A DNA stretch of 64,000 nt from Rhynchobatus australiae (taxonomy: Eukaryota). Of the stretch, positions 20,047 through 32,100 are shown in pieces (position 1 is the stretch's first letter; every line of letters begins with the position of its first letter). The notes below the pieces were generated by a model. The model had not been told where the DNA came from and made no database searches. It saw only the letters and a list, made by a program, of their open reading frames with translations. Location: positions 2,163,832 through 2,227,831 of the forward strand of contig JAUZTB010000075.1 in NCBI GenBank assembly GCA_034780895.1, written 5' to 3'. The position numbers and the translations under genes were made by a program.

Positions 20047-20107
20047 ATGGCGGCGGCTCCGGAGGCCCGGGGCCCCCCGCAATCCACCGTCGACAGGGTG
20101 ATGAAAG
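20047..20107 (+). CDS. PPP3CC: Calcineurin A exon 1 ([21 protein letters not shown])
   Basis: GACATGG start context; STVDRVMK matches STTDRV[VI]K; donor GTACCG; phase 1. Confidence 0.85.
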
Positions 20108-23100
20108 GTACCGGCGGCAGGCGTGAGGGGCGCGGCCGGCTGACACCTCCCCCCCCCGCCCCCTCCACCTCCCCCCGCACATCCCTCATCCACCCTCCCC
20201 TCATCCACCCTCCCCTCAGCGTCAGCCTCCCTCCCCCTCCTCTCCTCCCCTCCCCTCCCCTCCCTCCTCTCCTCCCCTCCCCTCCCTCCTCTCCCTCTCC
20301 TTCCTCCTTCCTCCTTCCTCCCGCCCTGTCCCCGCTCCCTGCGCCATGAACGTGTTCAGGTTTCTGGGGGACCTGTCTCACCTCCTCGCCATCGTCCTGC
20401 TGCTGCTGAAGGTCTGGAGGAGCCGCTCCTGTGCAGGTAGGTGCGGGGGAGCCGGGCGGAGAGGCCCGGCGGCCGGGGGAGGCTGCATAGGCCCGGCCCG
20501 GGGGTTGCATGGAGCCGGAGCATTGCAAGGCCCGGCCCGGGTAATGCACCGAGCCCGGCCCGGGGGTGCACGGAGCCCGGGACCGGGGTTGCACGGAGCC
20601 CGGGACCGGGGTTGCACGGAGCCCGGCCCGGGGGTTGCACCGAGCCCGGGACCGGGGTTGCACGGAGCCCGGGACCGGGGTTGCACGGAGCCCGGGACCG
20701 GGGTTGCACCGAGCCCGGGACCGGGGGTGCACGGAGCCCGGCCCGGGGGTTGCACGGAGCCCGGCCCGGGGGTTGCACCGAGCCCGGGACCGGGGGTGCA
20801 CCGAGCCCGGCCCGGGGGTTGCACGGAGCCCGGGACCGGGGTTGCACCGAGCCCGGGGCTGGGGGNNNNNNNNNNNNNNNNNNNNNNNNNNNNNNNNNNN
20901 NNNNNNNNNNNNNNNNNNNNNNNNNNNNNNNNNNNNNNNNNNNNNNNNNNNNNNNNNNNNNNNNNNNNNNNNNNNNNNNNNNNNNNNNNNNNNNNNNNNN
21001 NNNNNNNNNNNNNNNNNNNNNNNNNNNNNNNNNNNNNNNNNNNNNNNNNNNNNNNNNNNNNNNNNNNNNNNNNNNNNNNNNNNNNNNNNNNNNNNNNNNN
21101 NNNNNNNNNNNNNNNNNNNNNNNNNNNNNNNNNNNNNNNNNNNNNNNNNNNNNNNNNNNNNNNNNNNNNNNNNNNNNNNNNNNNNNNNNNNNNNNNNNNN
21201 NNNNNNNNNNNNNNNNNNNNNNNNNNNNNNNNNNNNNNNNNNNNNNNNNNNNNNNNNNNNNNNNNNNNNNNNNNNNNNNNNNNNNNNNNNNNNNNNNNNN
21301 NNNNNNNNNNNNNNNNNNNNNNNNNNNNNNNNNNNNNNNNNNNNNNNNNNNNNNNNNNNNNNNNNNNNNNNNNNNNNNNNCTATCCACCCTCCATCTCAC
21401 CATCCCCCTCCTTCCCACCATCCACTCTCCACGACCAACCTTCTGCCCAATGCCCCCTCCCCACACCCCTGCGTGCGTCCAGAGTCACCACCACCACATC
21501 GCCCCTTCCCAGAGGGTGAGGTGGCACCTCTCCAAACACAGCTCGTGGCCAGCCCTGCTTTGCTCCCCAGCCGGACCGACCCAGCCATCAGAGCCAATCC
21601 TTATCCCAAAGTTACGGATCTGGCTTGCCGACTTCTCTTACCTACATTGTTCCAACCCTCCACCCACTCCCCGTTAGCCTCCACCTCCTACCTCGCCTCC
21701 TCCACCTCTCTCCCTCCCAATCCTTACTCACGACCCTCCCTACCTCTCTCCTGACATTCCCTCCCAGCCCTTAACCTCTTCCTACCTACCTATCCACCCT
21801 CCCTCCCTCCCTACCTAATGACCCTCAACCTCTCCCTACCTAACAACCCTCAACCTACCTAACCACCCTCCATCTCTCCCTTCCCCCTTGCACCACCCTC
21901 CACTTCCCACCACCCTCCACCTCCCACCATGTCCCTCCCAACCCACAACCTCTCTACTACCCACCCTCCACCCCTCCTCACCTATCATCCTTCCTTCCAC
22001 CACTCCTGCCCAATGACCACCCCCGCCCGACGGCCCACCGTCCATTCACGCCCCCCCCACGCACCCTCCCATCCCGACTACCCCCTCCCCCATCCCTCCC
22101 GCTCCCCACCTTCCCCCGGCCCAATATCCATCCCCTCCCTCCCCTGCCACCCTTCACCCCTCTCTCCATCCCCTGCCTCCCCACCCAGTTTTCACCCCTC
22201 ATATAATCTCTTGTCTGTCCTCCCCTCCCAATCTCCACAATACTTCAGCTTTCCCCCCGGATTCCCTGGTCACGTGTTTCCATGTTTATCAGTCGAGGAA
22301 CACTTATATATTTTGGAAGCAGAGTTGTGTACTCTAGACGTTTTACAGAATCTTACGATGAATCTCGGAATTCATTTCATCTGCCACTTTTCTGGCTATT
22401 TTTCCAGTCTGCATGTGGTTTCCTGAAATCTGTTTTTATCTTACAAGTCCTGTAGTTCTGGGTATTGTATTATTTGCCCTTTTTGAACTTTGGACAATGG
22501 TTCTGATGTCAGTTCCAGAAGAAAGTTTCCTCTGGTCAACGTTCCTTCTGCCAGTCCCTTCCATAATGTTGTATTTGTGCATTCTATGGCACTTAATGTT
22601 GCAGGCAAGCCTATCAAGTGGCATTGTATCAAAGTCTTCATAAAAGTCCCAGATCCACAACAGCAACCACACCACTATCGTTAAACTTTTCTGATATGTT
22701 CAAAGAACTCCATCATATTTGTCAAACAGGCTTTAGTTAATCTTCAGTGGTTAGCATTTACTAAAACATTTCTTCCATAATGACAACTCATTTAGTTACA
22801 TGATTGAGATCTCTAGACTTTTTCCATAGTTAGCTTTTCTCTCCCTTTATTGAACTGGGGATTAGNNNNNNNNNNNNNNNNNNNNNNNNNNNNNNNNNNN
22901 NNNNNNNNNNNNNNNNNNNNNNNNNNNNNNNNNNNNNNNNNNNNNNNNNNNNNNNNNNNNNNNNNNNNNNNNNNNNNNNNNNNNNNNNNNNNNNNNNNNN
23001 NNNNNNNNNNNNNNNNNNNNNNNNNNNNNNNNNNNNNNNNNNNNNNNNNNNNNNNNNNNNNNNNNNNNNNNNNNNTGCAATAGGGATCCTGGTTATTTGA

Positions 23101-29100: not shown

Positions 29101-32100
29101 ATTCTAAGACACTCCCGATCCTCTGGTTTTCGTTTTGGAAACTTTGTACGTGTTTCCTTAAATTTAATTCAATTTGTAGGTACTCCTGTAATCCATGGTT
29201 GGACTCCTTTTCCTGTTGTATTTTTGTGCCTTAAAAAGAATGAGTATTTGCTGCAAATTGTGTTTATTTTTAATGCCTGTCCACTGATGCGCCCTTTCAT
29301 GTGGTTTCTCTGTCTACCACAGCCAACCTCATACCTTCACTGCTTCCTTTGTTTAGATTGAAAATCCTGATTTCAAATAGAACTACATCACCTTCAAACT
29401 TCATGTAAAACTCTATCATATTATGGTCAGTCTTTCCCAAGTGCCCCTGACCTCTTAGATCTGAGGTAACCTCTTACTGCGTCATTTCCACATGTGATTT
29501 TTTAGTTGGTTACCAGCAGCCATGTGTCTGTAGTGCCAGTTAGGACCGTTCATACCACTACTTCATCCACCTTATTGCAGATGCAGCTGCAGTTAGATAT
29601 AGTACATTTATATTTGGCCTTTTAACACTTTTTGGTACTCTGACTTCATGCCTTTTTTCCACCATCTACTTATTGTGCTTACAATGTGTCTAACTGCTTC
29701 TTTAAGCTTGTTTCTTTCCCTCCTAACATTCCCCTCAGGTTTTTATCCTCCTGCCAAGCTTATTTAAACCATCCTGAAAAGCATTTGTAAACCCCACTGA
29801 GGGGATATTGGTCTGTTTAGATGGAACCTGTTCACCTATACAGCTGCCTCTCATCTCTCCAGCCATCACTCATTTGCTCTATCCTTTCTCTGTACATATG
29901 GCACTGGGAGGTTACTGCCTTTGAGGTCCTGTTTTTTAACATCTTTCCTCACCCCCTAAAATTTACTTGGAGGACCTCATCCCACCTTCTACCAATGTGC
30001 CAGTGTTGAATTGCCCCCATTCACCTATTCACTGTTGTCTCTACCCTAAATGAAGCCCCCTTATTCAGCAGACTCCACACCCTGAGTACCGTGCATTCAG
30101 AGCAACACTCTCAAATCAAACCTGTCCTTCAAGATCACATTTAGTTTTTAACTAAGTTTTGATTTCAATCCATCTCAGTTGGATTCCTTTTCAGCTCCCT
30201 AAAATAAATCCTCATGTGTTAATGTTTTCACATTTGACTGTTCTTGATTGTTTTCAACAACTTGAATGCTTTTATCCATGTCAACATTTCAGCACAGTAC
30301 TGAGGGAGCACTGCTGTCTGAGTGGTATTACTACAGAAGTAATGCACCTTTGAAGGAGTACTGCTGAGGAATGCTGCATATTAAGAGTGCTATCCTTCGG
30401 ATGTTCTTTCTTGTAAAAATTGTATAATTTATTTTAATTTATGTTTCTCTTGTGAATGTTGTGTATCTGATTGTATATGCCTGTGATGCTGTTCCAAGTT
30501 TTTCATTGCATAATTTATCTTCATTACATCTGTGCATATGTGTACTTGTGCATATGGCAACAAAGTCGACTTTGACTTTGAGATAGGATGCTAAAGCAGG
30601 ATGTTGTCTGCTCTCTCACAGAGGAGCCTACTGCACTCAAGAAGTAGAGCAGATCTCAGCAGTATCCTGGCTAGCAATGAACAAGCTTATTATTTGGTTA
30701 TTATTACATTATTGTTTGTAGGAGCATGCAGGATAGGCTGCTGGGTTTCCTACATTGCAACAACATCTACATTCCAGCGTAGCTGGTTATCTGTGAGGTG
30801 TTTTGACAATCCTGGGAAACCGACTATCGTTATAGATGTACAATTGTTTGCTCGGTTACCTTGGGCTGGTGTGCAGAGTAAAGTGATCTCACGCTATGGG
30901 AGTGGTCAAGGTCTGCTCTAACTCTTTTCCAGGTGTTCCCTTACCACCGGCCCGCCGCTTGACCATGCAAGATGTTTACTTCGAGGGCAAACCCAGGTTC
31001 GAGGTCCTCAAAGCTCATTTCATTAAAGAAGGGCGGCTGGAGGAAGAAGCTGCCATCAAGATCATTGAAGACGGAGCTGCGGTCTTTCGGAAGGAGAGGA
31101 CTCTGATTGAGGTGGAAGCACCTGTCACAGGTGTGCGGCGTCGACCTCCAGCCTGATGCTTTGCCATCCTCGCTTCCCACCTTTGCTACAGCCCCCGCTC
31201 CCCCCACCCCACCCATCACTACCATTGTTTTGCCAACACTTGTCTAAAGGCTTGTNNNNNNNNNNNNNNNNNNNNNNNNNNNNNNNNNNNNNNNNNNNNN
31301 NNNNNNNNNNNNNNNNNNNNNNNNNNNNNNNNNNNNNNNNNNNNNNNNNNNNNNNATTTTTCTCCAATTTATCCTTTGCTGATTTCTAAAATCTTCTCAA
31401 TTTTCTGACCCAACACTGATTCCAATTCCTTCCCTTTCGATTTGACACTCTTCTTAACATCTTCAGTTAACTACAGATGGACCTTTTTCATGGTCTGTAT
31501 TTCTCAATGGAATACATCTTTGTTCAGAATGATGAAACATTTCCTTAAATGTTGACCACTGGTTATCTGTCATCTTAGCTTCAATTTTCCCAGACTGACA
31601 GCCAACTCTACCTTCATATCTTTCTAACTGCCTTTAGGTTGAAGATACAATTTCCAGACCCAAGCTCCTCACTCTAAAACCGTGTGAGAAATTTTATGTT
31701 ATGATCACTCTTCCCCAGGGAATTCCTTAACTATGAGATCATTAATAACCCTGTCCCATCTCATATAACCAGATCTACAATAGCTTGTACCCTGGTTGGT
31801 TCCACAACAGTCCTGAATGGACTCCATGCTACCTTAGTCAACTTAACTGGTCTTCTCTTTGCAAATATTAAATTTGTCCACAATTATAGCAGTTCCCTGT
31901 GAAGGATTCCTGATTTACATTCTTCCTACAGTACACCTACTGTTTAGGGGCTGAAAGTTTACTGATACCAGTCTTTTCTTTCCCTTGCTTTTTCTTATCT
32001 ACATCCAAATGATTCTACATCTGGATACACGTACCTGTGTTACCCTTTTAAATAGAACTAAAGAAAGGAGAGAACAACTTAAAGTCTCATTCACCACAGT

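Follow-up and report, generated by a model that had tools for sequence, protein, structure and literature searches.

A KDEL receptor first exon in calcineurin A intron 1 of Rhynchobatus australiae, most likely placed there by a chimeric assembly join

Introduction

In rays, KDEL receptor 1 (KDELR1; PF00810; XP_062890956.1, XP_059818739.1) begins with a coding exon whose 30 residues are all shared by an exon of the DNA studied here. In the KDELR1 gene models of Mobula hypostoma and Hypanus sabinus this exon continues into KDELR exon 2, whereas here no downstream KDELR exon follows it. The surrounding gene likewise has a close counterpart, the PPP3CC-like calcineurin A of sharks and rays (P0126 in Narcine), which it resembles in that its exon 1 is present and the complete series of later exons follows in order; none of the PPP3CC-like homologues compared has a KDELR-derived N-terminus.

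The only functional precedent that we found for a membrane-bound calcineurin A is CNA-beta-1, described in the available part of its source as an isoform whose alternative C-terminal tail is palmitoylated and so targets it to membranes (PMC8523714). As for genome assemblies, GC-rich promoters and 5' exons are given as known weak spots of older assemblies that do not use long reads (PMC9516821, in the portion available). The present locus shares with the errors described there a GC-rich first exon, a gene in pieces and repeats at the breaks. That portion documents missing sequence and false gene loss, and the words "chimeric" and "misjoin" are absent from it; here, in contrast, the piece is likely misplaced.

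The window analysed is a stretch of 64,000 nucleotides (assembly GCA_034780895.1, contig JAUZTB010000075.1, positions 2,163,832 to 2,227,831). It lies on a scaffold of 21.4 Mb (C75) in an assembly of 2.23 Gb and 81,522 contigs.

Results

The calcineurin gene and the exon in its first intron

The calcineurin gene is otherwise ordinary, with exons colinear with residues 1-570 of P0126. Coding exon 1 (20047-20107, forward strand, 61 nt) ends in phase 1 at a GTACCG donor and shares 18 of 20 residues with P0126. Exon 2 (30933-31130, forward strand, 198 nt) runs from phase 1 to phase 1, and the other exons follow in order on the same strand within an approximate span of 32990-46043, matching residues 86-570. 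Between exons 1 and 2 lies the KDELR exon (20346-20436, 91 nt, that is, 30 codons plus 1 nt), which starts 238 nt after the end of calcineurin exon 1 on the same strand and ends in phase 1 at an intact GTAGGT donor.

A first-pass annotation had described this arrangement, and its coordinates, donors and phases for calcineurin exons 1 and 2 and the KDELR exon were all correct on recheck. It had also proposed that the KDELR exon could be joined in frame to calcineurin exon 2, and the reading is indeed open: joins of either first exon (from 20107 or 20436) to 30933 are stop-free through exon 2. Its statement that the KDELR exon stands alone agrees with our tblastn search with full ray KDELR1, in which the window gave no further KDELR exon and its readable part no exons 2-4 downstream; none was found in 50 kb of flanking scaffold either. 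Use as an internal exon was considered and set aside. Of the five AG sites tested, four give a stop in the modelled join, among them the three that follow the stretches richest in pyrimidines; the fifth, at 20128, gives an open one but has a poor tract.

Public homologues of this calcineurin gene are named "gamma isoform-like". Upstream of it, at about 5454-5651 on the forward strand, is a ZIP zinc transporter exon (PF02535) whose next best genome match reaches 54%; we take it to be SLC39A14-like, and it would fit the order in humans, where SLC39A14 and PPP3CC are presumably neighbours. Four multi-exon calcineurin A loci occur in the genome, on C75, C77 (about 1.636-1.655 Mb), C64 (about 139.46-139.58 Mb) and C87 (about 31.61-31.74 Mb). 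Humans have three calcineurin A genes. One of the four loci may have been kept as a fourth copy from genome duplication; no paper on this was found among those listed in a literature search.

Sequence on either side of the KDELR exon

The stretch between the two first exons is mostly a C-rich low-complexity tract (20146-20345, forward strand), with 61-70% C depending on the sub-part; within it, and within the C/T tract of the first-pass annotation (20146-20340), lies a pure C/T tandem repeat at 20226-20322. On the other side of the exon, a GC-rich intron start and a minisatellite (20437-20865, forward strand) have a single match in the assembly. The minisatellite, which had also been reported, has a 23-nt unit and 14 copies (20545-20864), and the gap noted beyond it is a run of 515 N (20866-21380), in which an assembly gap and hidden letters look the same. 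Calcineurin intron 1 contains three N runs in all (515, 210 and 100), and 20107-20865 is free of N, including the supposed left join.

The 3' part of the C-rich tract is likely KDELR1 5' UTR, and 20437-20865 is likely KDELR1 intron 1. Pyrimidines make up 92% of the last 60 nt 5' of the start codon, as against 78% at an unlinked KDELR paralogue on contig C127, which fits a KDELR-type leader. In 400 upstream bases that paralogue has two TGACGT and two CCACGT boxes, and the window's 238 bases have none, which weakly suggests that the exon came without the KDELR1 promoter.

Two possible markers of origin were discarded. The longest word common to the C-rich tract before the N run and the sequence after it is 13 letters, a length reached in 149 of 1000 shuffles, so that repeat continuity across the insert does not support a misjoin above chance. 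Values of GC3 do not discriminate either (KDELR exon 0.87, a KDELR exon 3 on a separate contig 0.72, calcineurin exon 1 0.85, three later calcineurin exons 0.45-0.58). Rfam gave no match over 19000-32000 at E 0.01. Directly after the N run, 21381-21654 on the reverse strand has a weak eukaryotic large-subunit rRNA match (E 0.0004, under the gathering score). Part of this stretch belongs to a dispersed repeat, with matches of 73-94% on many contigs; it is possibly a 28S-derived repeat. Elsewhere in the window, on the reverse strand, about 55200-59300 is GC-rich and CpG-rich with broken reverse-transcriptase-like frames, presumably a Tx1/L1-type retrotransposon, and about 400-2200 carries broken gag/pol-like frames that we take to be a Gypsy-type LTR retrotransposon remnant.

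Identity of the exon

The KDELR exon is identical at 30 of 30 residues to KDELR1 of Mobula hypostoma (P0136) and Hypanus sabinus (P0137, P0138); the next best proteins compared reach 26 of 30, and exon 1 of the C127 paralogue 20 of 30. Solved KDEL receptor 2 chains match over residues 1-30 with E about 5e-11, which for a sequence match is far beyond chance. These comparisons identify the window exon, at the level of sequence, as KDELR1 exon 1. Its assignment to KDELR3 or KDELR2 is excluded by the full identity to named KDELR1 and by an intact exon 1 on C127. A 91-nt phase-1 exon also opens the unlinked C127 paralogue; phase 1 is therefore inherited, and the phase match with calcineurin is weak and needs no selection.

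KDELR genes elsewhere in the assembly

Pfam and protein searches located three other KDELR places in the assembly. On C127, exons 1-4 stand in order in a gene that we take to be KDELR2-like. A third paralogue, presumably KDELR3-like, has exons 3 and 4 at C80:17234826-17237822 on the reverse strand, with several N runs upstream; its exons 1-2 were found neither in the 60 kb examined nor in the assembly. The third place, C34856, is a contig of 1,063 bases with exon 3 alone and repeats on both sides. This exon matches ray KDELR1 P0136 at 49 of 53 residues (the exons of C127 and C80 reach only 39 and 28, in one order or the other), and by this measure it is KDELR1 exon 3.

Queries with exon 1 matched only the window and C127, a third match at E 1.5 being noise. 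The exon-2 query matched C127 only, and exon-4 queries matched only C127 and C80. KDELR1 exons 2 and 4 were thus not found in the assembly, nor was a second KDELR1-type exon 1; these searches give lower bounds, and N stretches could hide exons. Judged from these matches, KDELR1 in this assembly is two orphan pieces, exon 1 in the window and exon 3 on C34856. The first-pass annotation had stated that a KDELR locus elsewhere without exactly this first exon would speak against its fusion reading, and the KDELR1 piece on C34856 is indeed without exon 1.

In humans, TMEM143 and GRWD1 belong to gene families neighbouring KDELR1. The TMEM143 family had no match in the assembly (a weak search with no positive control), and GRWD1 was not found in a similarly weak search with PF12265, which gives two loci on other contigs, presumably RBBP4/7.

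Other rays, homologous proteins and sequencing runs

KDELR1 and the PPP3CC-like gene are on separate records in all four ray assemblies with both, as judged by record lengths: 37.5 versus 162.2 Mb in Mobula hypostoma, 43.8 kb versus 171.0 Mb in M. birostris, 217.5 kb versus 214.8 Mb in Hypanus and 375.66 versus 376.16 Mb in Narcine. The two Mobula calcineurin proteins were paired with their species by accession series. This is a comparison of records only, in which the two short KDELR1 records are probably unplaced and mean no more than that assembly did not bring the two genes together. It shows the ancestral state and is compatible with a change confined to the R. australiae lineage. Three of the four KDELR1 models are partial (M. 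birostris without exon 1, Narcine without exons 1-2, Hypanus without exons 4-5), and two ray models (P0170, P0172) have something else in place of calcineurin exon 1. Assembly evidently has difficulty with the start of either gene.

Among 30 calcineurin-like proteins, not one carries at its N-terminus the motif of KDELR exon 1. In a weak search for fusions, with KDELR1 residues 1-40 against proteins of 372-2000 residues, all five matches among 29 candidates carry the KDELR Pfam domain only. Literature searches, judged by their listings, gave only unrelated papers and none that links the two genes. Words of 19900-20560 occur in 24 sequencing runs, one at 0.81 and the others at 0.05-0.21 (as fractions of the sampled words), and none was counted as read evidence; the run at 0.81, which is public, may be the source sample.

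Discussion

The first-pass annotation had offered two interpretations of the locus. An exon-shuffled, membrane-anchored calcineurin has nothing in its favour beyond the compatible phase, and the alternative, a chimeric contig, is the better supported. We consider it very probable that the assembler, and not evolution, put KDELR1 exon 1 where it now stands in calcineurin intron 1, the join itself being deduced from its surroundings. This reading is favoured by the identity of the exon, by the broken state of KDELR1, by the separate records in other rays and by the two ends of the piece. These ends, a low-complexity tract on one side and a minisatellite and N run on the other (N being a gap or hidden letters), are as expected of a chimeric join, as is a source gene without its exon 1 elsewhere in the assembly. 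Judged indirectly, by record lengths, the arrangement is absent from four related ray assemblies.

Under such a join, the GC-rich starts of two genes, both adjoining C-rich low-complexity sequence, would have been fused within 20146-20345, where the assembler would cross from calcineurin intron 1 into the KDELR1 5' UTR inside the tract. The foreign piece would be about 0.5-0.7 kb long, comprising 5' UTR, exon 1 and the start of intron 1, and would stop where the minisatellite meets N at 20866, the N run being its likely right boundary; scaffolding would then resume in the calcineurin gene. Splicing in the living ray would be the normal one, from this exon to exon 2 of KDELR1, and calcineurin transcripts would start with the calcineurin exon 1.

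The arrangement could also be real. A recent copy of the KDELR1 5' end, silent or nearly so, may have entered calcineurin intron 1 while the true exon 1 remained unassembled or was collapsed. The stretch from 20107 to 20865 without N agrees with this, and GC-rich first exons are often missing, as in the C80 paralogue without exons 1-2; the true exon 1 could have gone missing in the same way. We nevertheless judge such a copy very unlikely: neither mobile-element ends nor a second copy was seen, identity at 30 of 30 residues across two other ray genera fits a working exon, and both a copy and a loss from the assembly are required, two events against the single one of a misjoin. That the entire KDELR1 gene moved into the intron in this lineage, its later exons now inside N runs, is highly improbable. 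The three N runs of intron 1 could offer places for them, exons 2 and 4 are found nowhere in the assembly, and the exon-3 contig is unplaced; however, its 1,063 bases exceed the 515 and 210 runs and have no sequence in common with the window. Just 238 nt, without the TGACGT and CCACGT boxes of which the C127 paralogue has two each, separate the exons. The human neighbours TMEM143 and GRWD1 were not found in the assembly in weak searches, and the two genes stand on separate records in four other rays.

Least likely, to the point of being extremely so, is that the exon, copied or moved into the intron only in the lineage of this ray, is used as an alternative first exon, its transmembrane helix 1 anchoring calcineurin A in ER or Golgi membranes. 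The join to calcineurin exon 2 is phase-compatible and open, the exon encodes a hydrophobic stretch (Kyte-Doolittle 19-residue maximum 2.02) with basic residues after it, and a single-helix anchor with the N-terminus in the lumen and the C-terminus in the cytosol is plausible for the predicted fusion. A membrane-targeted calcineurin isoform does exist by another route: CNA-beta-1, as the available part of PMC8523714 describes it, uses C-terminal palmitoylation, whereas the predicted fusion would use a borrowed N-terminal helix. Yet a shuffled copy should leave KDELR1 its own exon 1, and none was found; the residues show zero drift from KDELR1 over 30 positions; there is neither room for nor sign of a separate promoter. 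No such protein appeared among the homologues (0 of 30, and 0 of 5 long matches in the weak search) or in the literature that we searched. If true, it would mean that exon shuffling has recently given a central Ca2+ phosphatase a new location, by other means than in the palmitoylated isoform.

On the chimeric join that we favour, the letters are real and the parts ordinary, and most likely only the neighbourhood is artificial. The assembly would then yield a false in-frame KDELR1-calcineurin gene model, which is a warning for its use, and the window, as most likely read, is the place to which the first exon missing from KDELR1 was displaced.
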